A stretch of 64,000 bases of DNA, taken from Elusimicrobiota bacterium. GTDB lineage: Bacteria > Elusimicrobiota > Elusimicrobia > UBA1565 > UBA9628. Location: positions 1,024-65,023 of the forward strand of contig DAHZHT010000007.1 in assembly GCA_027406905.1 (NCBI GenBank), read 5' to 3'. This document shows positions 605 through 31,729 of the stretch, one piece after another. Position numbers and translations under genes: made by a program. Below the pieces are notes generated by a model. That model searched no databases and was not told the DNA's origin. It saw only the letters and a list, made by a program, of their open reading frames with translations. Position 1 is the first letter of the stretch, and each line of letters starts with the position of its first letter.

Positions 605-2590
605 CTATTGCGATTTCTCCATCATATTGGCCGCTAACCCATATTGCTCCCCATACTTATCCAAATAGGAGTGAAGATAATACCCTCTAGTCTTCGCCTC
701 GCCTGCAGTCCAGAGTATCAAATCACGTGTAAATGTTGGGGAACTAACAGGAAATGATTTCTGGAGGTCAGGCGCCATAAGATAAACTCGCCACAACTGT
801 TCCAACGCGAGACGAAACTGGGGGGTGTTTTTTTCAAATTCCAGGTAAGCCAACGGGCGACTAGGATTTCTAACAATCTCTGCCGCGAGCGAGATATATT
901 CCGTGGCGTATTGATCCAAGTAAGGGTGAAGATAATATCCTTTTGAAATGGCATCACCGCGTGCCCAGTTAATTAAATCAGGTACAAACGTTGGAGAAGC
1001 CGGATCATATGTCTCCTTAAGGTCAGGACTTATGAAATACACCTCCCAAAGCCGCCTCAGCGCTCCTTTATAAGTGGGATTTTCATTCATAATCGACAAG
1101 TAAGAGATAGGCGGGGAAATCCGTTTCTGAACATCTACCGGAAGCCGCCCTTGCCCCAAATGGAATACACTCAGGTGATTACGCTCCAGAAAGGACGCTT
1201 GCTCAAAAAACTTAGGCATATTTTTATCATCGGTCAGCATTCTCTCAATTCTTATCGCTGATTGATGGGTATAATCCAGCAACACTGAAACACTCAACCA
1301 GCGTTGCATACGAGTCTTTCGACCATTCACAATACCCCAATAGGTATTATTAGTCACCAAGGCAACAGAAAAAACAACCCAAGAAATCATCCACAATACG
1401 CTAATTCTTTTAGAGACTGAAGCAAAAAAGATGTTATGAATACTCACAAGATAAATTCCCACGATAAGAGGAATAATGAACGTCGTATAATAGGCATAGG
1501 AGCTAGAAATGGCCTCGTCTATACCGGAATGCAACCTGCCAATCAATAGAAACCCAGCATGAAGTAAGCCGAAAGCCATGAGCGCTACAGGGAAAGCATA
1601 GATCCTCCGTTTTGGCGTACGAGCGATACGCACAAGAAAAAATCCAATGGTTAGCAACAGGACGAGTCCAATCCCAACCACCCTCTTTGATGTCTGATTA
1701 ATGAAAATAGATCCAAGCATAGCTGCGTAGAATTCAATGCTGTAAAGCGGTCGGTTGATAAGCAGATGGAAGAGATTGCCTGGGGTTAAACCGCTACCCT
1801 CTCCAATATGATGCACCCCCAAGGTTTCTACATAAAGGATCGTAGTGGCAACAAATAAAAATGTCCAAAGAAAAAATTTCATATCTTTCCATGGAGTCGC
1901 AAAGCACTCCTCATTACGAAACCAAAGATAAATACAGCCTGCTGGCCAAACTAAAAGCCCATCAGCTGAACAGAAAGATGCGATAAAAGCAACCACTGCG
2001 GCAAATCCAAATGCCGCTTCAGGCAACAAGCTACTCTCCGTAGCAAATGAGAGGAGTTTTAGTGCTAAAAAAAGACAGAAAGTAATCATATACCAAGCAA
2101 TACCTAGGCCCCAAAGAGCATCCCGATGCTGAGAAAATGAAAACATGAAACAAGAAAGTGGCACAAGTATCCAAAACGAATAATAGCCTTTAGGCATATC
2201 CTTAATGGCCGATGAAACCAACAAGAAAAACGCCCCGGCCTGTAACGCAATTCCGCAATACATAACAGCCTTCATATTCATATAAGTAAGACGCTCAATC
2301 AAGACTTCAAACAACACCTTGAAAAACTCATGATGCTCCCCATTATGGCTTTGAAAAATGGCCCACCAATTAACATCACCATGAATATAGTGACGGTAAA
2401 AATCCACATTGGCCCACTCATCCCAATGCGGAACATTGACACCAAAGGAGTATACAAAGGCAAATAACATAAGCAAGGGTATGACAACCATAATAACGGG
2501 AAGATAGACTCGCACAAACATCTCTAATGAGAGTGGGCACTTAATAGTCCTTTCCCCAAATAAGCGAGCCTTCAATTGCTCAAATTTCAT
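605..2590 (-). CDS. Polytopic membrane protein, GT-C-like candidate glycan transferase/polymerase, with two copies of a C-terminal ~75-aa 'PDLQ' module
   Basis: 661-aa ORF with many hydrophobic helices in the first ~440 aa. The N-terminal motif VNVPHWDEW is shared with the next ORF (VNVLFWDEW). The soluble tail carries two repeats: RRLWEVYFISPDLKETY...GYYLHPYLDQY and EQLWRVYLMAPDLQKSF...GYYLHSYLDKY. Function is inferred only from topology and glycan-locus context. Confidence 0.55.
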   Translation of the reverse strand: MKFEQLKARLFGERTIKCPLSLEMFVRVYLPVIMVVIPLLMLFAFVYSFGVNVPHWDEWANVDFYRHYIHGDVNWWAIFQSHNGEHHEFFKVLFEVLIERLTYMNMKAVMYCGIALQAGAFFLLVSSAIKDMPKGYYSFWILVPLSCFMFSFSQHRDALWGLGIAWYMITFCLFLALKLLSFATESSLLPEAAFGFAAVVAFIASFCSADGLLVWPAGCIYLWFRNEECFATPWKDMKFFLWTFLFVATTILYVETLGVHHIGEGSGLTPGNLFHLLINRPLYSIEFYAAMLGSIFINQTSKRVVGIGLVLLLTIGFFLVRIARTPKRRIYAFPVALMAFGLLHAGFLLIGRLHSGIDEAISSSYAYYTTFIIPLIVGIYLVSIHNIFFASVSKRISVLWMISWVVFSVALVTNNTYWGIVNGRKTRMQRWLSVSVLLDYTHQSAIRIERMLTDDKNMPKFFEQASFLERNHLSVFHLGQGRLPVDVQKRISPPISYLSIMNENPTYKGALRRLWEVYFISPDLKETYDPASPTFVPDLINWARGDAISKGYYLHPYLDQYATEYISLAAEIVRNPSRPLAYLEFEKNTPQFRLALEQLWRVYLMAPDLQKSFPVSSPTFTRDLILWTAGEAKTRGYYLHSYLDKYGEQYGLAANMMEKSQ

Positions 2591-2597: not shown

Positions 2598-4313
2598 TCA
2601 ATCTAGTTTTTTAGAATTTATCTGGTTGAATAACAAAACAAACTGTTTCCCATAGGGATTAAGTTGATCCTGTAAATAGTATCCCTTCTCTTTAGCTTCT
2701 CCGGAGGCCCAACGAATGATATCATAGGAGAAAGACGCCGTCCTTACTCGAAAAGCTTTTTGCAAATCCGGAGCGATGGTATAGACATCCCAAAGTCGTT
2801 CAAGAGCTTCTTTATCGCCAGGATTGGCTTTCTCAATGTCCAAGTAGGATTCTGGCGGCCTCGCAAGATCGAGAATCTCCAACGGGAGAGAAATCCCTCC
2901 TGCCTGAAAAACATTCAAGTATCGAGAATTTAAAAATTCTGCCTGTGCCGCGACAAAATCATAACTGCCGAACACGGTTCTCTCTATTTTAAACCGTGGC
3001 TCGCTTTGGTAATGTAATACCTCAACCGCGTTAAGAGCTTGGGCGAAGCGCCACTCTCGGCCGCGCGCCACACCGCGAAATACATTCGAAAACGTGAAGG
3101 CAAGCAAAAATACTCCCAGAAGGATCTGACCGGATTTTGCCACGATGGCGGAATGGGTTTCGATGTAATTCTGATTAACAAAGCAAAGGTATATTCCCAA
3201 TAAAATCAAGAGATTATAGGCAGTGTAGTGGGATTCAAAAGCCTGACTGAAACCAAAGCTGGATCGGCCAGCCGCCAGCATGATGTCAAAGAATAATCCA
3301 AAAACAATAAGAGCGGCTGGAACAGCGTAGGCGCTTGTGTTTTTTGAGCGAAAGAAATTGATAATTGCAAGCCCAATGAGCGCATAAAGGACAATCCCCA
3401 ACAACACAGCCCAATGGGGGCGGATTCCAATCACAACGGCACCTAAACTTGCGAGCATGAATTTAAAGGTATAAAGAGGATGTTTTAGAGCGCCCAGGAC
3501 AGCCTGATGAACGCTTTGCGGCCCAGCGTCGGCGGGATTCAGGAGTGAAAAATATACTACCCAACAGAGGAAACCTGAAACAATCCACGCGGTGAAGCGC
3601 GGGTTCTTCCAAAAATATTTTAGGCTTGACCACTCTTTAGCAAACAAAAAAACTAGGCCAGCGGGCCATACCAACAAACCCTGGACCGAAGAAAAAGATG
3701 CAACGACTCCGCACACAATTGCGCCGAACGTGAGAGGGAGATTAGCAGAGCCACCAAACTTGTCATTTTCAAAACTCTCATCCAACAATACAAACGCCGC
3801 TAAAGAAAAAAATGTGATTATGAACCATGCGGTCTGAAAACCCCACAACATATTCTGATATTGACAGAATGAAAACATCAGACAGGCAAGGGAAACCAAA
3901 TGCCAATATTTATTTATCGTATCAGGAAGATTCTTTCGCGCTAAAAACCAAACGAGCCCTAAAGAAGCCGTTTGAAAAACGGCCCCGATATACATGAGCG
4001 CCTTATTATTGAATCCTGTGAGAAAGTCCATGGCCAACATGAGTAGGTACGGAAAAAACATAATATTCCCATTATGCTGCGCCTCAAACAATGAAAAAAG
4101 CCCCGCATGTCCTTCAACACAAGCCTTATAGAGTGGAACTATCTGCCACTCGTCCCAAAACAACACATTGACGCCGTAGGCATGGACATAGGCGAAATAG
4201 GAAAGCGCCAAAAATATCGTTAATGCTAGAGGAAGATAGACGTGAAATAATCGTGAACTACTTCCGCTTTTAGGTGTCAAGACAGAGGCTTTAGCGGTTT
4301 CCATAATCATCAC
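2598..4313 (-). CDS. Paralogous polytopic GT-C-like membrane protein with one C-terminal 'PDLQ' module
   Basis: 571-aa ORF with the same helix pattern and WDEW motif as 605..2590. The tail reads ERLWDVYTIAPDLQKAF...GYYLQDQLNPY. It sits 7 nt upstream of its paralogue. Confidence 0.55.
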   Translation of the reverse strand: MMIMETAKASVLTPKSGSSSRLFHVYLPLALTIFLALSYFAYVHAYGVNVLFWDEWQIVPLYKACVEGHAGLFSLFEAQHNGNIMFFPYLLMLAMDFLTGFNNKALMYIGAVFQTASLGLVWFLARKNLPDTINKYWHLVSLACLMFSFCQYQNMLWGFQTAWFIITFFSLAAFVLLDESFENDKFGGSANLPLTFGAIVCGVVASFSSVQGLLVWPAGLVFLFAKEWSSLKYFWKNPRFTAWIVSGFLCWVVYFSLLNPADAGPQSVHQAVLGALKHPLYTFKFMLASLGAVVIGIRPHWAVLLGIVLYALIGLAIINFFRSKNTSAYAVPAALIVFGLFFDIMLAAGRSSFGFSQAFESHYTAYNLLILLGIYLCFVNQNYIETHSAIVAKSGQILLGVFLLAFTFSNVFRGVARGREWRFAQALNAVEVLHYQSEPRFKIERTVFGSYDFVAAQAEFLNSRYLNVFQAGGISLPLEILDLARPPESYLDIEKANPGDKEALERLWDVYTIAPDLQKAFRVRTASFSYDIIRWASGEAKEKGYYLQDQLNPYGKQFVLLFNQINSKKLD

Positions 4314-4329: not shown

Positions 4330-7300
4330 CTATGGATGAAAGCCCCTCCTGGGCGCCGAGGATTCAAGCACTTTTTTTGTTGCCTCCAAAAAAGATCTCC
4401 CATATTTTAAATCGGGTTCTAGGTATGAACCCTCCGCCCATTCGTTCCAGGCATTGATAAACACCAGCCTCTCGTCTCCCTTAAATCTCCGCATCGTATA
4501 ATGGATACTATTTTGAAGCCACTCCGCGTATTTTTCCGGAGAAGCGTCGTGAAAGATCACGGCATTCTTGCCATGCCTCGGAGTGTTGTCCCAGGCCAGC
4601 ATCACGTCTTTATACCTCTTATAAGGAGTATCTTCTCGATCCGAATAATACCGGATGATTTTTGCATAGTCGAAAATTTTTCCTTGGAATTGAGGGCTGA
4701 CATTTAACTTATCAAGTTTATCATAAAGCAATTCGTCCGGAAGAATAAAAGTCGGGACCTCGTAAGAAGCGTCAAAGCCGATGTCATTGGGATTAGTGAA
4801 GGGATCAAAGCCTTCGCAACGCACAAGATAGATATCTCCAAACCCCGCTTTTCGGACCTCATTTCTCCAGGTCTCGGTAGTTGCTAGCGGATTCGGAAAC
4901 AATTCCGTCCGGTAGACGAGCAACAAAGGCTTCCCGTCCACTCTGATATATCGGGGATCCTCAAAGGCGGGGAAAAGATGCCGGATAAAGTTCAGGTCGT
5001 CTTGGTGGGAGTGCTCCTGCGCAATCAGAATATCATTATGCATGCCGTCCCATCGTCGGGTCCAATTCTCATTTGCCCAGCAAAAACAGAAAGGAAGGTT
5101 CGGCTTCTTGGACCGCAACATATAATCTATCGGCTTATGAAGTAACCTTCTGCCTTGAAACCAATAGAGATAATAACAAAACCCTTCAATGCCATATTCC
5201 TTAGCAAGATCGGCCTGATGATCCATAACTTCAGGCACCCTTAAATCATAATGCCCCAAATCCCCAGGAAGACGCGGTTGGTATTGGCCATCATAAAAGG
5301 GGCGCGCCTTGGCGACATTGCGCCATTCCGTAAAACCTTTGCCCCAATGCTTATCGTTCTCGGGAATGGGGTGATATTGAGGCAAGTAAAACGCGATAAG
5401 ACGCGGGTGTTTCAATCCCACTTCAACAGGTTGAGAAGAATTCGGCAATTTCGCATCAGGTAATTCCACGCTCAACGGATAGATTTCTTGGTCGCCTCCC
5501 TTGTGCGCCAATTGAGTTTCCAACCTTTTCATAACAGCTTGAAAAACGACATCAACGGGAATATCAGCTGCCGGACCCGCTTCATTGTATACTAAAGTAG
5601 CATTGCTCCCATCGGCATAGCCGCCTGTATACGGATTGTATTTCTTAAATTGATTGAATTGGCCCAAAAGGACCACTCCGGGAGTTTGGACTGCGTTTGC
5701 CAAGTGAGCTGGGCCGCTATCAACCCCGACAAAAAGAGCCCCACGTTTGATGACTTCAGCGGTTTCAAGCACAGAAAGGCGCCCACAAACGTTTATTTGG
5801 CCTTCCAATTCATGCAGAATGGGAACAAGGCCAACTTCTATGATTTTTAAAGCAGTTTTTTCCCGAATAAGAGCGGCCAATTCTTCCCATTTCCTAGGAG
5901 ACCAATCTTTGCTGACCTCGTTTGAAAAACAATGTAAAACGACAAATTCCTTGGGTAAATCCAAATGATCAACGTTTCTTCTCGCCTCATCTGGAATATA
6001 AACACGCGGCTGTTCGTCCAAGGGCTCAATGCCAGCGCCAATACAGAAAGACTTCAATAAACTCCCATGATTAAAATAATTGTCACCCGTGATGGAGATA
6101 TCCCCTTGAAGCTTGCTGAGCGGGACACCACAGTCCTGGCAAATTCTGCCATTCACATGGAGGTCAACGACCTCATCAAAGACGCGATGATAAACCATTT
6201 TGATCCAGTCGGTCAGGCAATCAACGACGATGGCCTCGTCAATATAGGGATTATTCGAAATGATCTCACGGTAAGGGGCCTTCACGACCCAATAGAGATG
6301 TGCCTTTGGGTTTTTTGCCTTAAGGCGCCGCGCCACCGGTTCACAAGCGACAATGTCTCCCAAATGCTCAATGAGGCCAATACCAATGGTGTGGGATATA
6401 TTTCGGGTTTTTGTTCTCGCTAGAAAGGATGTGGCTATGCCCACGGTTGCCCTTGGGACGTCTGCGGCCTTGCCAGCGCTAGGATTGGACAAACGCAGAA
6501 ATTCCATATGTATCTGATGCTTCGCCACAAGCGAATTTGAATCCATAGCGAGGCGCTTGAACGCCGCAATCAGCGGCGCAATCCCCTTCTTGCGCCAAAC
6601 GAAATAAACCTCTCGGGCAAAGGCCCTATGGCGGAGGGGATTGCTAATCACCTTCTTAAGGTAAGGCCTTGCAATCTGATAGGCTGTCGCCAATTTTGAT
6701 AGGTATACGATTTTAATATTGGAAATCTTAAAGCGACTTATGCTGTCAGCGGGATCTAAGCGCAATGCCACAAGACATTTTGGAAACGGTAAAACGGCCG
6801 ATATCTTGCCCTGCGTCGGCATAGGTAGAAGAAAAGATCTTCCTTCGCTAAATCCATTGCCTTCATCCCAGTAGAGACGCGGGTGTCTCGGATTTTCCAG
6901 AAATTCAAGCTCAAATTCGATCTTCATCCAGCCGCCGCGTAAGCGAGACTTGCGGCGTGGGCAAAGCAGGAAACAAGGGTCGCTTCCCGTTGATTGATAG
7001 AGACAGGGTTGTTCTTCCCGCAGATGATGGATCGGCTGAGGTTCCAAATCAATACTTCCAGAGATTGCGAATAGAAATGCGCTTTGCGCTTTAAAAGTAA
7101 AATAACGCCAACTTTTATATCCATGACGCAGCACTATTCCCAAAAGCCTTAACGGGCGCGGCCAACGCCAGGATCTTGAGGAAAGAATCAAATTAAGTTC
7201 ACGTTCTAGCCCTTGGTTTTTCTCGGCAGTCTTTACTAACTCTTGCTCAAACCGCACGGAAGCTTCGCGCAAAACTTTAATTTCACCATCCTTTTGCCCC

Positions 7301-8517
7301 AGGGCTTCCACTGATTGTTTAAGTTCACGCTCTAGCCGCACAGACGTTTCGTGCAAAACCTTAATCTCACCATCCTTTTGCCCCAGGGCTTCCACTGATT
7401 GTTTAAGTTCACGTTCTAGCCCTTGGTTTTTCTCGGCAGTCTTTACTAACTCTTGCTCAAGTCGCGCAGACATTTCGCGTAATCTCTCAAATTGCTCTGT
7501 ATAGGCAACTATATGCTGCTCGCGCTCCCCAGCGACCTCCTGCGTCATTTCAAGCTTTACCTGCAATTGGTCAATTGACGATTGCATTGAAACTAATGCT
7601 GGTGATGGATAATTTACGCCTACAACCTTAGCTGGAGACGTGTGAACTAATATCTCGCCTGAGTACTGCGGTTTATGCAATAGCATAAGTGCCAAATCAT
7701 CTGCGGTGTTAATCTCTGGCAAAGGACGTCCTTGACGATCAAAAAGCCGCTTGGCATCCTTCCAATTGATTTTTTCCAACTTTTTCAGAGATATCATCAG
7801 CAGACCGAATTCTTTTGCCCCACTAAAAATATCATCTGAATTACCAAAGTAGTTGTCACGATTATAGGCCGAACTCAACAAACCAAACGATTGATAGCCG
7901 CGTGAACGGCAAAACTCCAACAACTGAATTCCTGCTGATAGAGAATTGCATTCGGCAAATATAGTTGGTTGCCAGTTGGATATGGATTCCCGCGCTCCAT
8001 CAATCACTTGACGCTCCATGCCCTCAACATCAATCTTAATAAAATCGATTTTCCCCAACTTCAATTGGTCAATGGTAGTTATTGGGCATTTATAACCCTT
8101 GCCAGTTTCTATGGCCGAAGGACAATCTATCAGAGAAAAACTCCCCAGGCTTCCCTTGACCTTCAGATCAATGCTCGGCAATAAAATTTTTCCTTGGCGG
8201 TCGGACAGGGCGACATTCAGCGCGGAAATATTGCTGATTTTATTGGCCGAAATATTTCGAGATAAGAAATCAAAGATTTCCCGGCGCGGTTCAACAGCGT
8301 AGACAGAGCCCTTGTTTCCCACGAAGCGTGAAAAAGCGAGCGCGTGCGTCCCAATATAGGCTCCAATATCCAGAACTTGATCTCCTTGAGCAATAAACGA
8401 GGACAGGACCTCCAGTTCATCTTCTGCCCATTCACCGTATATAGTCAATGACCGCGATAGGATCTCATCCGAATCGATCACGTCCATTGTTCCGTATCGA
8501 GTCTTAACAATGCTCAT
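4330..8517 (-). CDS. Multidomain glycan-assembly protein: FkbM-type SAM methyltransferase + coiled coil + GT9-like (heptosyltransferase-fold) domain + WbsX-type glycosyltransferase domain
   Basis: 1395-aa ORF.
- N-terminus: VLDIGAYIGTHALAF...IDFIKIDVEGMERQVI (FkbM-like).
- Residues ~310-450: heptad-rich, with internal repeats.
- Middle: IGIGLIEHLGDIVACEP...FVGVDSGPAHLANAV (GT9 signature).
- C-terminus: IAFYLPQYHPIPENDKHWGKGFTEWRNV...FCWANENWTRRWDG (WbsX family signature).
There is a 4-nt overlap with wzt. Confidence 0.75.
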   Translation of the reverse strand: MSIVKTRYGTMDVIDSDEILSRSLTIYGEWAEDELEVLSSFIAQGDQVLDIGAYIGTHALAFSRFVGNKGSVYAVEPRREIFDFLSRNISANKISNISALNVALSDRQGKILLPSIDLKVKGSLGSFSLIDCPSAIETGKGYKCPITTIDQLKLGKIDFIKIDVEGMERQVIDGARESISNWQPTIFAECNSLSAGIQLLEFCRSRGYQSFGLLSSAYNRDNYFGNSDDIFSGAKEFGLLMISLKKLEKINWKDAKRLFDRQGRPLPEINTADDLALMLLHKPQYSGEILVHTSPAKVVGVNYPSPALVSMQSSIDQLQVKLEMTQEVAGEREQHIVAYTEQFERLREMSARLEQELVKTAEKNQGLERELKQSVEALGQKDGEIKVLHETSVRLERELKQSVEALGQKDGEIKVLREASVRFEQELVKTAEKNQGLERELNLILSSRSWRWPRPLRLLGIVLRHGYKSWRYFTFKAQSAFLFAISGSIDLEPQPIHHLREEQPCLYQSTGSDPCFLLCPRRKSRLRGGWMKIEFELEFLENPRHPRLYWDEGNGFSEGRSFLLPMPTQGKISAVLPFPKCLVALRLDPADSISRFKISNIKIVYLSKLATAYQIARPYLKKVISNPLRHRAFAREVYFVWRKKGIAPLIAAFKRLAMDSNSLVAKHQIHMEFLRLSNPSAGKAADVPRATVGIATSFLARTKTRNISHTIGIGLIEHLGDIVACEPVARRLKAKNPKAHLYWVVKAPYREIISNNPYIDEAIVVDCLTDWIKMVYHRVFDEVVDLHVNGRICQDCGVPLSKLQGDISITGDNYFNHGSLLKSFCIGAGIEPLDEQPRVYIPDEARRNVDHLDLPKEFVVLHCFSNEVSKDWSPRKWEELAALIREKTALKIIEVGLVPILHELEGQINVCGRLSVLETAEVIKRGALFVGVDSGPAHLANAVQTPGVVLLGQFNQFKKYNPYTGGYADGSNATLVYNEAGPAADIPVDVVFQAVMKRLETQLAHKGGDQEIYPLSVELPDAKLPNSSQPVEVGLKHPRLIAFYLPQYHPIPENDKHWGKGFTEWRNVAKARPFYDGQYQPRLPGDLGHYDLRVPEVMDHQADLAKEYGIEGFCYYLYWFQGRRLLHKPIDYMLRSKKPNLPFCFCWANENWTRRWDGMHNDILIAQEHSHQDDLNFIRHLFPAFEDPRYIRVDGKPLLLVYRTELFPNPLATTETWRNEVRKAGFGDIYLVRCEGFDPFTNPNDIGFDASYEVPTFILPDELLYDKLDKLNVSPQFQGKIFDYAKIIRYYSDREDTPYKRYKDVMLAWDNTPRHGKNAVIFHDASPEKYAEWLQNSIHYTMRRFKGDERLVFINAWNEWAEGSYLEPDLKYGRSFLEATKKVLESSAPRRGFHP
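7195..7460. repeat. Nested perfect direct repeats inside the coiled-coil coding segment (56-nt pair and 47-nt pair)
   Basis: The 56-mer AAGTTCACGTTCTAGCCCTTGGTTTTTCTCGGCAGTCTTTACTAACTCTTGCTCAA occurs at 7195-7250 and 7405-7460. The 47-mer TCACCATCCTTTTGCCCCAGGGCTTCCACTGATTGTTTAAGTTCACG occurs at 7283-7329 and 7367-7413, an offset of 84 nt (28 codons). At protein level the pattern is EQELVKTAEKNQGLEREL / QSVEALGQKDGEIKVL x2 / EQELVKTAEKNQGLEREL. Confidence 0.9.
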
Positions 8518-9887
8518 GCGATTTTTAAATCGGCCTTTTCAATTCTTATCTTCATGCGCATGTGACATGCCCCGACTATCCCATGAACCAAGCGACTCTG
8601 AATAGACTTAATAGCAATGGCGTCGTGCATTAAATGATGCTGAAAATGTTCTTCACCTTGCCCTTCCGCTATAGCCACAGTTACAGTATAATCTCCTTGA
8701 ATTAAGATGGGCATTGTAAAAGAGAACTCCGCCGTCGCCAGCTCATCTTTATTTAATACAATCGGACTGTCTCTAAAATGAAAGTCAGTCCCCTCAGCAC
8801 ACACATACTGACCCAAGCGATCCTTAATTACAAATCCAAAAGCTGGATATCGAATCGGGCGCAGCGCTCTCGCCAGAACAGAAAAACAAACCCTCTCGCC
8901 GCCCAGGATAGTCGAAAGTTGCCTGCCATCATCTCCCATGAACCCTGCATTTATGATCCTGGCTCCACCTGCTCCCAAGCTTTCCGCATCATGGCGTAAT
9001 GGGGAGACATGTAATACATTTGGTATTCCATCTTCCCCATCAAAAATCCTCTCCGACGCGGATATAGATTGCAAAGACTTTGATCCCACGCCGTTATCAA
9101 TATGCACTCTCTCGCCTTCCGAGGGAAGCGGTCTCGACCTCTCGGCATAAATTTCCTCAAGATATATCCGCGATATTTCCTCCACTGAGCCAAGAATAGG
9201 TTGTTTCTGACTTCCCAACGGCAATAAAATCGCCACATTGCATAAAGCCTTTACAGCTGACATGTCGTGACTGACAAATAGAATAGTTCCACCTTTGTCT
9301 TGAAACTCATGCAAAAAGCGCATACACTTCTGGGTAAAAAAAACGTCCCCGACGGCCAGAGCCTCATCAATTACCAAAATATCCGCGTCGACATGCGCGA
9401 TGACGGAAAAGGCCAGTCGAACCTGCATGCCGCTCGAATAGGTCTTGACCGGCTGATCAATAAAATCCCCGATATCGGCGAATTGGACGATCTCGTCATA
9501 TTTTGAGTCGATCTCTTCCTTGGAGAGGCCCAAAACCGAGGCGTTGAGATAAACGTTCTCCCGGCCCGTAAATTCCGGGTTAAAACCCGATCCCAATTCT
9601 AAAAGCGCGGCGACGCGGCCGTTGACCTCGATCTGCCCCTCGGTCGGAGTCAAGGTCCCACAGATCATCTGCAAAAGAGTGGATTTGCCGGATCCATTTC
9701 GCCCGACGATGCCGAAGGTCTCGCCTTTCTTGACTTCAAAAGAGACGTTTCTCAGCGCCCAAAAATCCCGATGAAACTTTTTGCGCCCGCGCCAGAGAGA
9801 TTGCTTGAGCCGGTCATGGGGCCGATCATAAATTTCATAGCGCTTGCCGATATTTTCGGTCCTGACGGCGAAACCGGAGGATGTCAT
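8514..9887 (-). CDS. wzt: O-antigen/polysaccharide ABC exporter ATP-binding protein with C-terminal glycan-binding (Wzt_C-like) extension
   Basis: 457 aa with Walker A GRNGSGKST, signature YSSGMQVRL and Walker B ILVIDEAL. About 200 extra C-terminal residues are beta-rich, as in Wzt-type transporters. Partner permease wzm lies at 12674..13588. Confidence 0.85.
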   Translation of the reverse strand: MTSSGFAVRTENIGKRYEIYDRPHDRLKQSLWRGRKKFHRDFWALRNVSFEVKKGETFGIVGRNGSGKSTLLQMICGTLTPTEGQIEVNGRVAALLELGSGFNPEFTGRENVYLNASVLGLSKEEIDSKYDEIVQFADIGDFIDQPVKTYSSGMQVRLAFSVIAHVDADILVIDEALAVGDVFFTQKCMRFLHEFQDKGGTILFVSHDMSAVKALCNVAILLPLGSQKQPILGSVEEISRIYLEEIYAERSRPLPSEGERVHIDNGVGSKSLQSISASERIFDGEDGIPNVLHVSPLRHDAESLGAGGARIINAGFMGDDGRQLSTILGGERVCFSVLARALRPIRYPAFGFVIKDRLGQYVCAEGTDFHFRDSPIVLNKDELATAEFSFTMPILIQGDYTVTVAIAEGQGEEHFQHHLMHDAIAIKSIQSRLVHGIVGACHMRMKIRIEKADLKIA

Positions 9888-10219
9888 TTCTCGTTTCTCT
9901 TTCTCGCCGACGACGAAGCGCCCGCGGAAGCGATGGTCTCATGATGGGCCTCTATGCGGACTTTCCGGGACGTAGGAAGTCTTCCGTAATCGATCAAGTC
10001 CACCTTAAAATCCAAATCCGAAAGCTCAAAGTCCTCGGCTAATTTCGCGAGTTCGGACAAAGACAAGGGCTTATCCGACACAATCGCCAAATCTAGATCT
10101 GAAAACGGCCGCAGATTTCCGTCCACGCGGGAGCCAAAAGCCCAGACCTCAAGGCCGGGAATCCCGCGCTCAAGAATGGAACCGACGATTTCCCTTTCTC
10201 GCGGCGTCAAGTAAATCAT
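9884..10219 (-). CDS. Minimal nucleotidyltransferase (MNT, HI0073-like), antitoxin-type partner of the HEPN protein
   Basis: 111 aa with GS-x(n)-DxD motif FGSRVDGNLRPFSDLDLAI. It has 4-nt overlaps on both sides (HEPN upstream, wzt downstream). Confidence 0.75.
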   Translation of the reverse strand: MIYLTPREREIVGSILERGIPGLEVWAFGSRVDGNLRPFSDLDLAIVSDKPLSLSELAKLAEDFELSDLDFKVDLIDYGRLPTSRKVRIEAHHETIASAGASSSARKRNEK

Positions 10220-10653
10220 AGGCCTTTTAAGGCCTCCTCAAGGCGCCGAAGAAGCTCCTTGGCCTCCTCAAGAAAACGCGGCAAGAAGGCGAAAACCTCC
10301 GCCGCTTTTTCCTCGTCATAGGTATGACTGGTCGCACCGCGGGCCGCGCGATAATCGCGCCAAGAACTCCATCCCGAACGCACGAGACCTCGTTCATTGC
10401 CTGTCCGAATCAAATCTTGAAAAGACATCTCTTCGACCGCGGCGGGATCGGCAAGAGAGGCCTTCAGCAATCGTTTGAGCATTTTATGGCTTAATTCGTA
10501 GGTAAACTCAAAAGATTGAATGGCCGCCGCGCGAAACTGTTCGGCCAGGGCGGGGTCGCGGCGCGCTAAATCCGAATCGCAAAAGCGAAGACTCTCCTCA
10601 AGGCGCGAAATCGCCTTGGCCAAGGGAGATAAATCAATGATATCGCCGCTCAT
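10216..10653 (-). CDS. HEPN-domain protein, HI0074 family (nucleotidyltransferase substrate-binding protein-like)
   Basis: 145-aa all-helical protein with ...IQSFEFTYELSHKMLKRLL... and ...YRAARGATSHTYDEEKA (R-x4-6-H region). It is paired with the MNT. Confidence 0.7.
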   Translation of the reverse strand: MSGDIIDLSPLAKAISRLEESLRFCDSDLARRDPALAEQFRAAAIQSFEFTYELSHKMLKRLLKASLADPAAVEEMSFQDLIRTGNERGLVRSGWSSWRDYRAARGATSHTYDEEKAAEVFAFLPRFLEEAKELLRRLEEALKGL

Positions 10654-10868
10654 TTTTTAATGGCGACGTTTCTAAATCCCGTCATGGCCCTAAGACGCTC
10701 GGCTAAATCGATGGGAATCTTTCCGGCGCGCGCCAAAAGATCGAAGCCTTCCGCCGAACTCTGCGGCACGCCCAGGCGCTCTTTCGCCGTTAGACGCATC
10801 GCCATATCAATGGCGGCTTGGCAAGCCCGCTCGATAATGGCCGCCTTGTTAAGGAGAACGTCATCCAT
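10650..10868 (-). pseudogene. hepT: Decayed hepT (DUF86-type HEPN toxin): internal in-frame deletion and C-terminal truncation
   Basis: From ATG 10868 it reads MDDVLLNKAAIIERACQAAIDMAMRLTAKERLGVPQSSAEGFDLLARAGKIPIDLAERLRAMTGFRNVAIKK-stop. Full-length DUF86 toxins have ~30 aa between the NK..IER helix and the C.A.ID.A helix, and continue RN.AVHDY...(+40 aa). Here the catalytic His and the C-terminus are absent. The longer track ORF (to 11033) is a spurious upstream extension through mntA. Confidence 0.65.
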
Positions 10869-11280
10869 GGCGCGGGAAATAGGACTCGAGAATGGGCCGA
10901 CGGTCCTCGCAGAAGCGGGCGTAATTAGACAAGACGCGCGTCTCAAACTCAAGCCGGGATTCTTCATCGGAGGAGAAAAGAACGACCCCATCCGCGACAA
11001 CTTCCTTGGCATGAACGAGAAATTCCTCGGCATTCAGGCTGGACGCCTCGACCAGAGAACCGGCGATTTTTGAAAGTTCCGCGTTCAGTTGGAGCAAAAC
11101 CTTCGGGTTCAATGAATGGCCGCGCGGGAAAAGAAGGGCCAGGTCCCAATCGCTGTCCTTGCGTTCAAGCCCCAGGGCGCGAGATCCGTAAAGATAGACG
11201 GCTAAAACGTCGGAAACGGTTCGGCGGATATGAGCCAACATTTTTTTGACGGCGCCGGGCATTGCGCTGAAATTTTCCAT
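10861..11280 (-). CDS. mntA: MntA-type nucleotidyltransferase antitoxin (apparently intact)
   Basis: 139 aa with LYGSRALGLERKDSDWDLALLF (GS...DxD). Its stop overlaps the hepT start (ATGGATGA). Confidence 0.75.
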   Translation of the reverse strand: MENFSAMPGAVKKMLAHIRRTVSDVLAVYLYGSRALGLERKDSDWDLALLFPRGHSLNPKVLLQLNAELSKIAGSLVEASSLNAEEFLVHAKEVVADGVVLFSSDEESRLEFETRVLSNYARFCEDRRPILESYFPRHG

Positions 11281-11393
11281 CCCTTACATTATACACAAAT
11301 CCCGACGAGGTTTCGCCCACTTTTTTCAGGCTCATCTTGCGTTGGATAATTCTGGCTATTGTTTTTTTCAAAAGCGCCTGTTATACTAGAGCT

Positions 11394-11642
11394 ATGCGAC
11401 GAAACTCCTCCCATCTCTACAAGGACTACAAGTGGATTGTCGCCGACCCGCGACTTCTGGGCGGGGGCTTGGCCGTTCGAGGCACTCGCCTTTCGGTTTC
11501 TCTCATCCTGGAGTGCCTCTCCAACGGCATGACCCTCGAAGATATCGACGAGAGTTTCGATCATGCCTTCCCGCGCGAGGCTCTTGCCGAAGTTCTGAAA
11601 GTCGCCGCGGAAGCGGCGAACTCCATCCATGTGGCTGCTTGA
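11394..11642 (+). CDS. DUF433-family small protein (antitoxin-like partner of DUF5615)
   Basis: Reads ...IVADPRLLGGGLAVRGTRLSVSLILECLSNGMTLEDIDESF, the typical DUF433 core. The start is taken at the internal ATG 11394, which lies 6 nt after a TATACT box. The track ORF starts at 11337. Confidence 0.65.
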   Translation: MRRNSSHLYKDYKWIVADPRLLGGGLAVRGTRLSVSLILECLSNGMTLEDIDESFDHAFPREALAEVLKVAAEAANSIHVAA

Positions 11643-11973
11643 CGCGAACATGGACGTGCATCTACTTTCTCTCCTACAGGAATTGGGGGTCGAATGTGAA
11701 GCCACGACCCGGCGCGGTTGGCAGGCCTTAAACAACGGCGACTTGGTTTCAGTCGCCGTAAAGGCTGGTTTTACTTGCATGCTGACCCAGGATCGCCTCT
11801 TTGGCGAAGCGGCGGCGCGAGCTCTCAAGGCTCATCCGCACTTTTCCGTGGTCGTTATCCATCTCGCGCAGTTTCCCTGGAAGCGATATCGCCAGAATTT
11901 TAATTCGGCTTGGTCAAAATCTCCAATCCGTCCCATCCCCGGGAAAATTACCCACTGGCCGATCTCCCTTTAA
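11629..11973 (+). CDS. DUF5615-family (PIN/Mut7-C-like) putative toxin
   Basis: 114 aa starting MWLLDANMDVHLLSLLQELGVE...GDLVSVAVKAGFTCMLTQDRLF. It overlaps the DUF433 gene by 14 nt, the usual two-gene arrangement. Confidence 0.6.
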   Translation: MWLLDANMDVHLLSLLQELGVECEATTRRGWQALNNGDLVSVAVKAGFTCMLTQDRLFGEAAARALKAHPHFSVVVIHLAQFPWKRYRQNFNSAWSKSPIRPIPGKITHWPISL

Positions 11974-12073
11974 AGTCCAACGATCTGAGAGCGATAGGCT
12001 TTCGCGGCGATCCTCACTTCTCCAGATCAAACACCCAATCGGGGCCGAATTTTTGGATCACCGGAGCCACTCG

Positions 12074-12337
12074 TTAGGCGGCATGGCGCATAAGGGTTTG
12101 GTTAATGATGGTCTGATACCCTATGCCACGGAGTTTCGCCTGAGATCGCGCCCATTCCAACGCTTTAGGATGGAGGCGGATATGAACATCCCGATACTTA
12201 TCCCTGCCCTTTGGGGGTCTGCCGCGAGCCGGGCGCTTCAGATGAAAGGTCTCTTCAATCGCCTTCTTAAACATCGCGGTCTCTTCCGGAGCAACGCGAC
12301 GAGCCCTGGAAAAATCAAACTCTCTTGTTTTCTTCAT
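12074..12337 (-). CDS. brnA: BrnA-type antitoxin (CopG/RHH-like C-terminus)
   Basis: 87 aa: ...RGRPPKGRDKYRDVHIRLHPKALEWARSQAKLRGIGYQTIINQTLM. It lies immediately downstream of the brnT remnant. Confidence 0.7.
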   Translation of the reverse strand: MKKTREFDFSRARRVAPEETAMFKKAIEETFHLKRPARGRPPKGRDKYRDVHIRLHPKALEWARSQAKLRGIGYQTIINQTLMRHAA

Positions 12338-12598
12338 AAATTCTCCTTTCCTTGCGGCTGGCGCGGCGAGCGCTGATCATGCGAATAGAGTTCTCCGGAG
12401 CGCGCACGGTAAAAACGACAACCAGAATGCCAAAGCCGGAGTCTCCAATCAACCACTGTCTCGCTTCCTGGGCGGAATGTTTAAATCATCCATGATGAAA
12501 GCGAACGGATCGTCAAAAACGAAAGAAGCTCTCTCAAAATCAATTCCGTGCTTGAGGGCGTTGCGTTTCGCCTTTTCGCTATCCCATTCAAACCTCAC
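12315..12598 (-). pseudogene. brnT: brnT (BrnT/DUF497 toxin) interrupted by a 1-nt frameshift
   Basis: Hand translation from GTG 12598 gives VRFEWDSEKAKRNALKHGIDFERASFVFDDPFAFIMDD, then a premature stop. The adjacent frame continues FKHSAQEARQWLIGDSGFGILVVVFTVRAPENSIRMISARRASRKERRIYEE. The shift lies around 12484-12490 (GATGATTTAAAC). Neither piece reaches the 60-aa ORF-track cut-off. Confidence 0.7.
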
Positions 12599-12603
12599 AT
12601 TTT

Positions 12604-12632
12604 AGTGTACATCGAAATAGGCGTGATGTCAA
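12604..12632 (-). promoter_or_regulatory. Sigma70-like promoter abutting the brnT start: TTGACA-N17-TACACT-N5-GTG
   Basis: Read on the minus strand: TTGACA (12632-12627), a 17-nt spacer, TACACT (12609-12604), then 5 nt to GTG 12598. Confidence 0.5.
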
Positions 12633-12673
12633 TAGAACGCAAAAAACCCAGAAAATCCGCATTTCCGGCGCAA

Positions 12674-13588
12674 TCAGAGAACGTCGGCAAACCCCTTGCG
12701 CGTCTTCTGAAACCAGACAAAACCAAGATAGGCCACGACAAGACTCGCCGCCCCGTAGATAGACAGGCCGGCCCAGTTAGGAAAACTCCCGCGCAAAACA
12801 ATCGCGCGCAATTCATCCACGGGAAAAGTCAGCGGATTGAGCGCGAAGAGGCGCCTCACCCAAAGGGGAAGAGAAGAATCCGGATAAAAAATGGGGCAGA
12901 GAAACATCAAGACCATCGTCACGATGCCGATCACTTGCCCGACGTCGCGTATATAAACCCCGAGCGAAGACAAAAACCAGACCAGCCCCGCCGTCATCAA
13001 AACCAGCGGCAATAAAACCAACGGCGACAACAAGGCCGTCCAGAAAACGCCGTGGGCGAAAAGCCCCAGGGCCGTCAATAAAATCGCCAGGCTCATTAAA
13101 AGGTTAAACAGAGCCGCCCCGACGGCAATCCAACAGAAATTCTCCAGCGGGAAAACGACTTTTTTGACGTAATTGGCGTTGCCCAGAATCAGCCCGGGCG
13201 CGCGGTTAAGGCATTCCGAAAAAAAGTTAAAAACGATAAGGCCGGTAAAGAGATTAAAGGTAAATTGCGCCATCGCCGACAAGGATTTGCGGCTCTCGGG
13301 GCTGCCCATGATATAGCCGAAAGCGAAAGTATAGACCGCCAAAAGAAGAAGCGGGTTTAAAATAGACCATAAGAGCCCGCCGAAAGACCCGCGGTAGCGC
13401 ACCGCCACGTCGCGCTTGCCCATGGTCCATACAAGAGTCCAGTTTCGCCAAAGAGAAAGAAACGGCGAGAAAAAGCCCAAAGAATAGGGCGACACCCCGG
13501 CGCGGTAAAGGACTGTGGAACGGCGCGAAACGCCTCTTTGTCCGCCGGAAGCGCCGGTTTCGGCAATGGGGTCTATCGCGGGCGTCAT
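12674..13588 (-). CDS. wzm: O-antigen/polysaccharide ABC exporter permease (ABC-2 type)
   Basis: 304 aa with six predicted helices and the ABC-2 N-terminal signature ...LVWTMGKRDVAVRYRGSFGGLLWSILNPLLLLAVY. It is the partner of wzt. Confidence 0.85.
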   Translation of the reverse strand: MTPAIDPIAETGASGGQRGVSRRSTVLYRAGVSPYSLGFFSPFLSLWRNWTLVWTMGKRDVAVRYRGSFGGLLWSILNPLLLLAVYTFAFGYIMGSPESRKSLSAMAQFTFNLFTGLIVFNFFSECLNRAPGLILGNANYVKKVVFPLENFCWIAVGAALFNLLMSLAILLTALGLFAHGVFWTALLSPLVLLPLVLMTAGLVWFLSSLGVYIRDVGQVIGIVTMVLMFLCPIFYPDSSLPLWVRRLFALNPLTFPVDELRAIVLRGSFPNWAGLSIYGAASLVVAYLGFVWFQKTRKGFADVL

Positions 13589-13717: not shown

Positions 13718-14338
13718 ATGGACATCCGCTCATTCTCAAACCTTCTGCGCGCGCACAAGCTGGCCCTTTTTTCCGCGGGCGATCTAAAAATTTTGCTGTC
13801 CCCAAGCGCGCGGCAGGGATTGTCCCTGCGGCTTCATCAGTGGCGCAAAAAAGGCTGGGTGTCCAGAATCAAGCGCGGTCTCTACCAGCTGGACTATCCG
13901 GAGCCGCCCGTGATTGCCGATCTTTATCTCGCCAATCGGATTTATGAGCCGTCTTATGTCTCTCTTGAAACGGCTCTCTCTCATTATCAGATTCTGCCTG
14001 AATTTTCAGCCCAGGTGACATCGGTCACTTCAAAGCCGACGCGGAGATTCACGAATTCTCACGGCCTTTTCACCTACACGACCATTCGCCCCTCGGCCTA
14101 CGCCGGCTATACGGCGATCAACCTGCAAGGCTGGCCCGTGCGCATGGCCGAGCCCGAAAAGGCGGTGATTGATCGACTCTACATCGCGCTGCGGCGGGGG
14201 GAAAACCTGGCTGACGTCGAAGACCGCTGGGACAAAGCGCGGATCAGAAGAATGAATTCCGGCAAACTGCGGGGCTATGCCGCGATTTTTAAATCGGCTG
14301 AAAACAAGCTCAAGAGGGCGCTCGATGCTTTCATATGA
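13718..14338 (+). CDS. abiEi: AbiEi-type antitoxin / transcriptional regulator (type IV TA, abortive infection AbiE)
   Basis: 206 aa with an N-terminal wHTH-like region ...RLHQWRKKGWVSRIKRGLYQL and a C-terminal region ...YEPSYVSLETALSHYQILPE...MAEPEKAVIDRLY. Confidence 0.7.
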   Translation: MDIRSFSNLLRAHKLALFSAGDLKILLSPSARQGLSLRLHQWRKKGWVSRIKRGLYQLDYPEPPVIADLYLANRIYEPSYVSLETALSHYQILPEFSAQVTSVTSKPTRRFTNSHGLFTYTTIRPSAYAGYTAINLQGWPVRMAEPEKAVIDRLYIALRRGENLADVEDRWDKARIRRMNSGKLRGYAAIFKSAENKLKRALDAFI

Positions 14339-14882
14339 GGGATTGATCGCTCGCTCTTTGGAAAGGGGAATGCCCGCGGGCAAGCTCAGGGGAGCGGTCA
14401 GGGAATACATTCAAATCCTGGCCTTAAAAGCCTTTTATGCGGCGCCCCGCGCGGAAGGGCTGGCTTTTTTGGGCGGCACGGCGTTGCGATTCGGATACGA
14501 CCTGCCGCGCTTTTCGGAGGACCTCGATTTTGACGTCCGCGATTTTTCTTTTCGGGAGTGGAAGGCGCTGCTGGAAGAGACGGCTCAAACTCTTTCTCGC
14601 CAGGGATTGTCTCTTGAAATGAGAGCTTCCGAGAAAGGAAGCCTTTTAAGCGGGGATATGCGGCTTCAAGGCGCGCGCATTCTAAGCGCCAAGGGCGTCG
14701 CGGGAGACACTCAAGACGTGATCGCATCGCGCTTGAAATTTTTTGGGTCCGCCAAGCTCTCGGTCATGGCCAAACGCCTCGAGCCATTTTTATTTAAGCC
14801 GGAGCAGGCCGATCTTGTCGCAAAAGCCCCGACTCTTTTGCCGGACGCCTTGGAATATTTGAAAGATGGAGGGATCTTTTAG
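14325..14882 (+). CDS. abiEii: AbiEii/AbiGii-family nucleotidyltransferase toxin (short form)
   Basis: Reads ...YIQILALKAFY...LAFLGGTALRFGYDLPRFSEDLDFDV, the AbiEii NTase motif. The start is taken at ATG 14325, which overlaps the abiEi stop. About 185 aa, shorter than many family members. Confidence 0.65.
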   Translation: MLSYEGLIARSLERGMPAGKLRGAVREYIQILALKAFYAAPRAEGLAFLGGTALRFGYDLPRFSEDLDFDVRDFSFREWKALLEETAQTLSRQGLSLEMRASEKGSLLSGDMRLQGARILSAKGVAGDTQDVIASRLKFFGSAKLSVMAKRLEPFLFKPEQADLVAKAPTLLPDALEYLKDGGIF

Positions 14883-14894
14883 GCGCGAAGTCAC

Positions 14895-14970
14895 CCTGCG
14901 AAAAACCCAGGGAATAGGGCGCCATGCGCTCTTATTTTATCATTTCCCTCGCCCTCATCAACGAGAAATC
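14895..14970. repeat. 48-nt direct repeat copy 2 (14923-14970) preceded by an echo of wzm codons ~33-40
   Basis: The repeat reads CATGCGCTCTTATTTTATCATTTCCCTCGCCCTCATCAACGAGAAATC. Minus-strand reading from this ATG gives MAPYSLGF..., compared with wzm ...VSPYSLGFF. At DNA level 14901-14922 matches 13472-13493 at about 18 of 22 positions. Confidence 0.8.
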
Positions 14971-14983
14971 ATATAATCGGAGA

Positions 14984-16282: not shown

Positions 16283-16310
16283 TACCGGGAATATCGGTAT
16301 AATATTTTAA

Positions 16311-25748: not shown

Positions 25749-25857
25749 TCTTAAAAAAATCCCCGAAAATCGAGGCGGCGTATCCAATCATATCGGGCGT
25801 AATTCCCGGATCAACGCCGTAAAATGTTCCGTTCATGGCCTCATGATAATATATCAT
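25741..25857 (-). pseudogene. 3-prime remnant (38 codons) of a second rfbH/DegT-family gene
   Basis: Minus-strand reading gives MIYYHEAMNGTFYGVDPGITPDMIGYAASIFGDFFKSV-stop. The genuine RfbH C-terminus is ...[34 protein letters not shown]-stop. DNA core: CCGGGAATTACGCCCGA(T/G)ATGATTGGATAC. Confidence 0.75.
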
Positions 25858-30999: not shown

Positions 31000-31020
31000 T
31001 TAAAAAAAAGATTCATCGCT

Positions 31021-31356
31021 TCAGGGTCTCGCCACATGAGATCGGGCGATGATTCGCCCAATCTCCGGATTGGACGCGCCCAACGCGAGCAACGAACGAA
31101 TAATCAAATCAACGGAAACGGAATCGTCAGCCGCCTCCATTTTAGCCACTCGGCTTTGGCTCGATCCGACGAGCTTGGCCAAACCTATTTGCCCTAAGCG
31201 GCGACGATGGCGTTTCTGTCTGAGACTTTCGGCTAATTTTAGCTTAAGCTCGATATACTCGGATTCCTGATTCGACAGGGACAATAATTCCTCAACTCCG
31301 CCCACTCGCCACCCCTTGGCCTCAAGCCGCCTGCGTTTGGACTCACGCATCATCAT
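31021..31356 (-). CDS. higA: XRE-family HTH antitoxin (HigA-like)
   Basis: 111 aa: ...LRQKRHRRRLGQIGLAKLVGSSQSRVAKMEA... (HTH). It overlaps the upstream toxin gene by 14 nt. Confidence 0.7.
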   Translation of the reverse strand: MMMRESKRRRLEAKGWRVGGVEELLSLSNQESEYIELKLKLAESLRQKRHRRRLGQIGLAKLVGSSQSRVAKMEAADDSVSVDLIIRSLLALGASNPEIGRIIARSHVARP

Positions 31357-31675: not shown

Positions 31676-31679
31676 AAAG

Positions 31680-31708: not shown

Positions 31709-31729
31709 GACGCGGACTACTTCCAGATT

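Follow-up and report, generated by a model that had tools for sequence, protein, structure and literature searches.

Can a single polypeptide both build a surface glycan and stop its growth at a set length? The question is raised by one gene in a 64,000-nucleotide stretch of DNA from an Elusimicrobiota bacterium (GenBank assembly GCA_027406905.1, contig DAHZHT010000007.1, positions 1,024 to 65,023 of the forward strand), hereafter called the window, in whose own coordinates all positions are given. The gene is a large open reading frame (ORF) of 1395 codons that directly follows the gene for Wzt, the ATPase of an ATP-binding cassette (ABC) transporter. Coiled-coil rulers are the accepted means of O-antigen length control in ABC-transporter-dependent pathways; to our knowledge, the examples that have been tested all come from a few enterobacterial serotypes. 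An initial annotation of the window had proposed that the 1395-aa protein joins a cap-writing methyltransferase to a coiled-coil ruler and to glycosyltransferase (GT) domains, that the neighboring Wzt reads the cap, and that the whole is a third solution to the problem of chain termination. On the evidence below, we judge it reasonably probable that this one polypeptide both extends and terminates the chains of a surface glycan exported by an ABC transporter, and that this glycan is probably lipopolysaccharide (LPS) O-antigen. The claim of a third solution did not survive comparison with other systems.

Domain organization of the 1395-aa protein

Both the coordinates of the large ORF and its 4-nt overlap with the Wzt gene were borne out: at the junction, which reads ...gcATGAgc..., ATGA holds both the start codon of the large ORF and the stop codon of wzt. 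From the N to the C terminus, the protein consists of an FkbM head, a coiled coil, a basic helix that opens with an SWR motif, a β-sandwich, a helical bundle, a GT9-type domain of the GT-B fold, and a WbsX domain (Table 1). Three of these elements, all between the coil and GT9, had been overlooked earlier: the SWRWPRPLR motif with its basic helix, the β-sandwich, and the helical bundle. No transmembrane segment was predicted in the protein, and no signal peptide was predicted for it.

Table 1. Features of the locus, in window coordinates
Feature	Positions	Strand	Residues	Remarks
Large ORF	4330..8517	(-)	1395 aa	
FkbM-type methyltransferase head	7618..8517	(-)	aa 1-300	S-adenosylmethionine (SAM) dependent type; proposed chain-terminating cap writer
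Coiled coil	7183..7602	(-)	aa ~306-445	~140 residues; proposed molecular ruler
DNA repeat region of the coil	7193..7482	(-)		
84-nt tandem repeat, two copies	7245-7412	(-)		90% identical
80-nt repeat pair	7193-7272 and 7403-7482	(-)		210 nt apart
SWRWPRPLR motif and basic/aromatic helix	7066..7179	(-)	aa 447-484	junction of terminator and polymerase modules
β-sandwich	6700..7056	(-)	aa 488-606	all-β in the AlphaFold2 model, pLDDT >90
Helical bundle	6466..6696	(-)	aa 608-684	AlphaFold2 helices at fragment positions 159-235
GT9-type GT-B domain	5500..6438	(-)	aa 694-1006	
Disordered linker			aa 1009-1034	from the AlphaFold2 model
WbsX / GH99-like (β/α) barrel	4351..5403	(-)	aa 1039-1389	
Wzt	8514..9887	(-)	457 aa	ABC ATPase, aa 1-~250
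Wzt_C module of Wzt	8571-8981	(-)	aa 303-439	
Wzm, ABC-2 permease	12674..13588	(-)		Pfam ABC2_membrane, 1.6e-26
Polytopic membrane protein	2598..4313	(-)	571 aa	~10-11 transmembrane segments and soluble C terminus; paralog of the 661-aa neighbor
Polytopic membrane protein	605..2590	(-)	661 aa	last gene of the operon; paralog of the 571-aa protein
Toxin-antitoxin-type genes	9884-11280	(-)		in the wzm-wzt gap
AbiEi/AbiEii pair, Wzx-like flippase, 345-aa protein	13718-17348	(+)		
AAA_14 + DUF4143 ATPases (three genes)	21597-22751, 25888-27072, 27163-28356	(-)		
SDR enzymes (two genes)	23836-25787			
rfbF, rfbG, rfbH	28466-33316	(-)		CDP-3,6-dideoxyhexose pathway

The N-terminal domain is an FkbM-type methyltransferase, as had been claimed. 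Pfam family PF05050 (Methyltransf_21/FkbM) matched aa 50-209 (3e-17, 63.7 bits against a cutoff of 22.7), and the NCBIfam model TIGR01444 (fkbM_fam) scored 98.2 bits against a cutoff of 37.7. AlphaFold2 modeled aa 1-300 mostly with a predicted local distance difference test (pLDDT) value above 90, falling locally around aa 131-140 and 251-260, and the model has the class I methyltransferase fold; its top match in the PDB by Foldseek was the FkbM structure 2py6. We looked for a loss of SAM-binding residues as a possible refutation, and found all of them kept in an alignment of 28 homologs, in which D50-x-G52-A53-x-I55-G56, E76, and K161-x-D163-V-E165-G (within IKIDVEGME) were invariant. A kinase domain such as those of WbdD and of Klebsiella pneumoniae O7 ORF6 was considered and rejected: just ~95 aa separate the methyltransferase core from the coil, and they form part of the conserved FkbM-head fold. 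As this leaves no space for a kinase domain, a simple methyl group seems the more probable cap.

The other half of the protein was modeled separately (aa 450-1395; 67-sequence alignment; mean pLDDT 85.8). Within it, PF01075 (Glyco_transf_9) gave a partial match at aa 844-955 (5e-14, 52.6 bits against a cutoff of 22), and Foldseek matched the GT-B domain to 3tov (6e-15), WaaC (6e-13), WaaF and TibC, over an E-value range of 6e-15 to 1e-10. In the alignment to WaaC, HLGD721 corresponds to SMGD13, SK870DW (K870-D871-W872) to DDK192HW, and GVD933SGPAHL(ANA) to SVD261TGLSHL; we take D13, K192, and D261 of WaaC to be catalytic or donor-binding residues. These motif columns are invariant or nearly so in the 67 homologs. 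Against the WaaC/F/Q equivalog models the domain scored 57 bits, far below the cutoff of 185, and its donor might not be ADP-heptose.

The C-terminal domain matched PF14307 (Glyco_tran_WbsX) over aa 1040-1380 and the entire model (positions 1-350 of 350; 4e-135, 451 bits). By Foldseek, the barrel resembles endo-α-mannosidases of glycoside hydrolase family 99 (GH99; E ~1e-10, TMt ~0.6), and its invariant NEWAEGSYLEP (E1359, E1362) aligns with FNEWHEGTQIEP of BtGH99. This BtGH99 motif, NEWHEGTQIEP, presumably carries both catalytic glutamates. The sequence match to GH99 was not significant (E 0.09), and the domain is not classed as GH99. The GT9-like and WbsX-like domains that had been annotated are both present by Pfam, but describing WbsX as a transferase was an overstatement: given the GH99 fold and the NEWxEG glutamate motif, "transferase" is here only a name, and the "glycosyltransferase" of the Pfam entry may mislead.

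These features allow a different division of labor, in which GT9, maybe together with separate GTs, builds the chain, and WbsX is a GH99-like endo-glycanase, transglycosylase or glycan-binding module that trims, releases or rearranges it; the claim of a polymerase would then be only half right. The fold and the aligned NEWAEGxxxEP glutamates speak for such a role, as do the label that NCBI gives to WbsX relatives ("glycoside hydrolase family 99-like") and our finding no WbsX biochemistry, sugar transfer included, in the literature that we located. The company that the domain keeps points the other way. WbsX replaces GT2 and GT4 modules positionally in head-coil-GT mega-enzymes (P0002, P0304, P0274, P0260), and takes GT-like positions in proteins laid out as Methyltransf_24-coil-WbsX-GT2-GT4, FkbM-coil-GT2-WbsX, and Methyltransf_23-GT9-WbsX-TPR-GT2. 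It is also cytoplasmic by context, lacking a predicted signal peptide or transmembrane segment and being fused to cytoplasmic enzymes, and by sequence alone its match to GH99 is the insignificant one given above. In addition, a gene annotated "wbsX", which encodes a multi-domain protein, had acquired frameshifts and nonsense mutations in phage-resistant survivors of Burkholderia gladioli; wzt was mutated in survivors too, and the authors predicted altered or absent O-antigen (PMC13391952). We regard a trimming or rearranging role for WbsX as unlikely, if not strikingly so.

Between the coil and GT9 lie the three elements that had been overlooked. The motif SW[RK]x[TS]xPxR comes after the coil in 14 homologs; AlphaFold2 placed a low-confidence helix at aa 455-484, and this basic helix is likely a membrane-proximal element. 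The β-sandwich, which contains a conserved LYWDxGxGFSE motif, is the N-terminal domain of many stand-alone GT9-WbsX proteins of ~900 aa. Searches of Pfam, NCBIfam and PDB sequences returned no relative of the β-sandwich or the helical region.

The coiled coil and its length variants

A coiled coil had been proposed for residues ~310-450, and structure prediction and heptad analysis agree in finding one. A single heptad register runs across aa 306-445, with a hydrophobic enrichment at a and d positions of 0.41, compared with 0.13 +/- 0.05 in shuffled sequences (reached by 0 of 2000 shuffles). The segment contains one proline; AlphaFold2 modeled a helix over 306-405 and a further one over 420-431, and SMC coiled-coil profiles matched aa 312-439 weakly. 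If continuous, the coil would measure ~207 Å (~140 residues x 1.48 Å), close to the ~200 Å reported for the WbdD coil (PMC5082667). Fifteen family members were compared for the spacer from KPQY, the conserved sequence that closes the head, to the SWR motif: it measures 59 to 167 aa (median 97) and is longest in the window protein.

The DNA encoding the coil is itself repetitive (Table 1), and both repeat spacings are multiples of 21 nt, that is, of one heptad. The 90%-identity cluster to which the window protein belongs holds members of 1353 (P0254), 1395, and 1423 aa (P0255). Relative to the window protein, P0254 and P0255 have a 70-aa deletion and/or a 28-aa insertion at the coil repeats, both whole numbers of heptads; beyond these, the alleles differ by just four substitutions (S95N, P453T, P455S, S677Y). 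The strains from which they come are distinct, with 96.7-98.9% identity in DNA. The genome of P0255 is that of a sister strain (locus L090, GCA_021810245.1), which is 98.7% identical to the window over the polymerase and downstream genes and 96.7% identical over 7193-10246, a stretch that begins at the last toxin-antitoxin gene, takes in wzt and the head, and reaches the coil; the genes flanking the operon differ. Among other family members, the Tandem Repeats Finder detected tandem repeats in the coil of L001 only, which is likewise built on an 84-nt repeat and where a 10-N assembly gap splits the ORF. As repeats are confined to the window type and L001, a repeat-built ruler is not general in the family.

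In Logan unitigs from sequencing runs that hold window DNA, assembly breaks inside the coil repeats, and the repeat unitigs have ~1.5-2.8x the depth of the flanks; because of these breaks, the allele lengths are neither borne out nor contradicted by the unitigs. Window DNA was found in mine-drainage and sediment metagenomes.

A fused form of two separable modules

The two halves of the protein have different relatives. Its N-terminal third is 31-45% identical to 770-1230-aa "FkbM family methyltransferases" that end in GT2 and/or GT4 modules. Residues 450-1395 are 43-61% identical to the stand-alone ~900-aa GT9-WbsX proteins, many of which start exactly at the β-sandwich. In Paraburkholderia sp. 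EB58, the halves are separate: a 437-aa FkbM-coil-SWR protein, whose C terminus, "...SSSWRLTAPLRLLKRVVKRS*", is the SWR motif, is followed ~60 nt downstream by a gene for a 916-aa GT9-WbsX protein. Similarly, in Burkholderia ubonensis, a single locus with wzm and a wzt that includes Wzt_C encodes an FkbM protein of 385 aa and a GT9-WbsX protein of 914 aa. Since Burkholderiaceae encode both halves as adjacent genes, we conclude that the window protein is the fusion of a putative WbdD-like terminator with its polymerase partner, the join lying immediately past the SWR motif.

A split form in Burkholderiaceae also invites the suspicion that the 1395-aa ORF is an assembly product, in which adjacent FkbM-coil and GT9-WbsX genes were merged across the coil repeats; such repeats do fragment short-read unitig graphs, and the coil of L001 contains a scaffold gap. 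The fusion is, however, uninterrupted in three assemblies (those of the window, P0254, and P0255), and the window and L090 differ by 1-3% in DNA and in their flanking genes. Moreover, the junction itself (aa 447-487) lies outside the repeats and is near-identical in the three assemblies, bar P453T and P455S, and a protein with a sulfotransferase head (P0257) is fused at the same point. We therefore consider a merger extremely improbable.

P0257 (1280 aa) is the nearest fused relative of the window protein. A Sulfotransfer_3 domain at aa 8-203 replaces the FkbM head, and the protein is 46% identical to the window protein over aa 311-1200, which suggests a sulfate-capping version of the same machine. 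In L001 (GCA_021822495.1, positions 8706-12946), ORFs of 451 and 981 aa very likely represent one gene, as the scaffold gap lies inside the coil repeats; this gene would encode a head of another kind, a coil, GT9, and WbsX. The head of L001 is not FkbM, and it had no match in Pfam, NCBIfam, or PDB sequence searches.

Transporter context and related loci

The Wzt encoded upstream does have the long C-terminal extension that had been noted: it is a carbohydrate-binding module (CBM) of the Wzt_C family (1.3e-27, model positions 4-142 of 143 in Pfam), and ABC_tran was matched as well. The closest solved relatives of Wzt are the ABC-transporter entries 8dku (E 6.5e-82) and 7k2t (1.7e-81). Between wzm and wzt lies a gap of ~2.8 kb, occupied mostly by toxin-antitoxin-type genes.

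We checked six further loci with FkbM-coil genes: L004 (a gammaproteobacterial metagenome-assembled genome), L084 (Thiothrix nivea), L085 (Sulfuriferula), L086, L087, and L088. Pairing with Wzy-dependent systems would have spoken against a role in chain termination; none of the six was of Wzy type, and in every one wzm and a 438-489-aa Wzt with Wzt_C were followed directly downstream by the FkbM-coil-GT gene. Gene calls in L084-L087 overlap by 4 nt. Contexts were taken from exact-protein look-ups, since scanning genomes with a profile of the head had yielded just two informative loci, L004 and L005.

Bit scores against the separate parts of the window reveal a mosaic. The six FkbM-head loci scored 260-276 for Wzm, 332-385 for the Wzt ATPase, 139-160 for Wzt_C, and 218-281 for the FkbM head; their polymerases are of GT2/GT4 type. 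L001 scored 89 for Wzm and 199 for the Wzt ATPase, with no match for Wzt_C or the FkbM head, and 476 for GT9, 681 for WbsX, and 606 for the downstream membrane protein. L003, which has the same polymerase type and a Methyltransf_23-type terminator, scored 285 for Wzm, 290 for the Wzt ATPase, and 24 for Wzt_C, again with no match for the head. The Wzt_C of the B. ubonensis locus (L002) scored 120. Thus, the Wzm, Wzt, CBM, and head of the window resemble those of FkbM-head loci, and for its polymerase half the similarity is to loci that have different heads and transporters. The putative cap writer and cap reader therefore appear to be co-inherited, and to have been recombined with different polymerases. 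The mosaic fits a writer-reader pair, and common ancestry of a transporter-terminator cassette would yield the same pattern.

The same comparisons bear on whether the head terminates chains at all. The methyltransferase might instead decorate internal residues or a precursor, with the coil merely oligomerizing or scaffolding the enzyme, and length set otherwise, for example by coupling to export. FkbM enzymes are generic O-methyltransferases, and the genome scan with the head profile returned mostly small stand-alone ones without neighboring wzm or wzt; further, in L001 a head and coil accompany a CBM-less Wzt. Yet the head always lies at the opposite end of the coil from the GT modules, an arrangement shared with characterized terminators, and it strictly adjoins, and looks co-inherited with, a Wzt that bears Wzt_C. 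The variable length of the spacer between conserved flanks, and the WbdD-like organization of the stand-alone FkbM-coil-SWR protein, also argue against a decorating role, which we find improbable.

A model for chain extension and termination

By analogy with the coiled-coil terminators WbdD, WbbB, and K. pneumoniae O7 ORF6 (PMC11231755), we propose the following mechanism for a protein that extends and terminates its own product. The GT9-type GT-B and WbsX modules, placed at the membrane by the SWRxxxPxR basic helix, would extend a lipid-linked chain. The coil would oligomerize and keep the N-terminal FkbM methyltransferase ~20 nm off, such that only sufficiently long chains could reach it; O-methylation of the non-reducing end would then stop growth. 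Finally, the C-terminal module of Wzt would bind the capped end and so license export by Wzm-Wzt. The enzymatic activities, the nature of the cap, the oligomeric state, the association with the membrane, and the dependence of chain length on coil length are, in this proposal, inferred.

Several observations weigh against this model. The term FkbM was absent from the papers on O-antigen termination that we found, in an incomplete coverage of that literature. Despite the GT9 type of the transferase, no heptose-donor genes were seen in the scanned positions 605-38,052, where a 179-aa ORF at 11289-11828 and frames in 31.0-32.5 kb were left unassigned. WbsX, with a hydrolase-type fold and a GH99-type glutamate pair in the predicted structure, may be no Leloir glycosyltransferase. 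In L001, the closest polymerase relative, the head and coil are accompanied by a short Wzt that lacks a CBM; head and coil are therefore not always paired with a cap reader. The coil-length variants derive from metagenome assemblies in which repeats break the unitig graph, and some could be assembly artifacts. The AlphaFold2 models were built as monomers. Lastly, a gene for a Wzx-type flippase and four more GT genes lie nearby, making the assignment of genes to glycans ambiguous.

A bolder, combined reading adds two elements to the model. The 84-nt repeats, each equivalent to 28 residues or four heptads, would expand and contract by recombination, yielding coils of ~98, 140, and 168 residues in ~4-nm steps and tuning glycan length in the manner of a contingency locus; "WbsX", in turn, would be a cytoplasmic chain extender of GH99 fold, with a chemistry unlike that of known Leloir glycosyltransferases. 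We think it distinctly unlikely that both hold.

Comparison with known systems

The proposal of a third solution fails because K. pneumoniae O7 ORF6 (characterized by Kelly et al. in 2024), fused methyltransferase-GT genes of Pseudomonas syringae, and many head-coil-GT fusions in databases precede the window protein. ORF6 already combines a methyltransferase, a coil, and a GT polymerase in one polypeptide, and its orthologs occur in alpha- and gammaproteobacteria and in cyanobacteria, with or without fused GTs (PMC11231755). Like the window protein, ORF6 has an N-terminal methyl-transferring terminator, a central coil, and C-terminal GTs, and is encoded with wzm and wzt (PMC11231755). It differs in having another type of methyltransferase and a 223-aa kinase domain, which give a methyl-phosphate cap, and an immunoglobulin (Ig)-like CBM before the coil; the window protein has an FkbM head, a β-sandwich after the coil, and GT9-type and WbsX domains in place of the two GT2 modules of O7.

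WbbB of Klebsiella O12 and Raoultella terrigena likewise has an N-terminal terminator, a coil ruler, and C-terminal polymerase GTs, and its Wzt carries a CBM. The WbbB terminator, however, is a Kdo (3-deoxy-D-manno-oct-2-ulosonic acid) transferase, which makes for a sugar cap in place of a methyl one, and the GT families also differ. WbdD acts with WbdA in Escherichia coli O9a and K. pneumoniae O3, and a methyl-only form is found in K. pneumoniae O5; it shares the N-terminal methyltransferase, a coil of ~200 Å, and a membrane-proximal C terminus (PMC3482155, PMC5082667, PMC11231755). WbdD recruits a separate polymerase, whereas that of the window is fused. The WbdD coil forms a parallel trimer. 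Its methyltransferase is, we assume, not of the FkbM type. The FkbM-coil-SWR protein of Paraburkholderia, beside its GT9-WbsX gene, has the WbdD-like two-protein layout.

In P. syringae, the TET operon encodes wzm, a wzt with the C-domain, an O-methyltransferase and a GT, and sets LPS banding; GT and methyltransferase are fused in some isolates (PMC7820976). There, the GT is a WbdA-like GT4 and the glycan a rhamnan, and a coil is not discussed (PMC7820976). Database families add FkbM-coil-GT2/GT4 (P0003-P0029), FkbM-coil-GT2-WbsX (P0304, P0274), and sulfotransferase-coil-GT9-WbsX (P0257); they share either head and coil (31-45% identity) or the polymerase half (46-61% identity) with the window protein, and those whose context was checked likewise follow wzt. 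A search for the combined FkbM, GT9, and WbsX architecture, as had been suggested, was made among 1.84 billion cluster representatives; of the best 150, only the cluster of the window protein itself has all three. What is new here is the parts list (FkbM head, GT9-type domain and GH99-like WbsX); the order of terminator, coil, and polymerase in one chain was already known.

Neighboring genes

The toxin-antitoxin-type genes between wzm and wzt encode a 139-aa Polbeta nucleotidyltransferase, a 127-aa HepT-like protein, a 145-aa NTase_sub_bind protein, and a 111-aa nucleotidyltransferase, all of the nucleotidyltransferase/HepT(HEPN) type; the last overlaps the start of wzt by ATGA. L090 has a different set of such genes at the same site, L001 has them between wzt and the large gene, and a SLFN_AlbA_2 gene lies between wzm and wzt in the Sulfuriferula locus.

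Downstream of the large ORF, the 571- and 661-aa paralogs share a repeated motif, ...LWxVYxxxPDLQKxF..., in their soluble C-terminal part, and a WDEW motif after the first transmembrane segment. Their genes adjoin GT9-WbsX genes in L001, L003, L005, and L090. Neither protein had a match in Pfam, NCBIfam, or PDB sequence searches; homologs of the 571-aa protein are annotated only as "hypothetical", and some distant relatives have C-terminal bacterial Ig or LysM domains. The pair may represent a so far unrecognized family of extracytoplasmic glycan-modifying enzymes.

Further along the window, a CDP-3,6-dideoxyhexose pathway is encoded by rfbF, rfbG, and rfbH (glucose-1-phosphate cytidylyltransferase, 480 bits; CDP-glucose 4,6-dehydratase, 461; RfbH, 730), and two SDR enzymes are present. 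Three ATPase genes of the AAA_14 + DUF4143 type are dispersed amid the polysaccharide genes; a similar gene occurs in L003, a rhamnose/wzm locus. An opposite-strand block holds an AbiEi/AbiEii pair, a Wzx-like flippase (Polysacc_synt_3), and a 345-aa protein without a family match. As this block splits the (-) strand polysaccharide genes, a second, flippase-dependent pathway may share the locus.

Significance

The putative FkbM-head terminators form a widespread, uncharacterized class that appears to be inherited with its transporter, which bears a CBM, and that can be joined to polymerases of unrelated types; this supports the idea of a "writer plus reader" cassette that is modular. Together, the window protein and the adjacent genes of Burkholderiaceae tie GT9-WbsX proteins to chain extension. 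For WbsX, a common "glycosyltransferase" domain, the GH99-like motif of the active site puts the nature of its reaction in question. Natural alleles that apparently differ by whole heptads offer ready variants for the ruler model outside the Enterobacteriaceae. The paradigm of coiled-coil length control is thereby extended, not changed.

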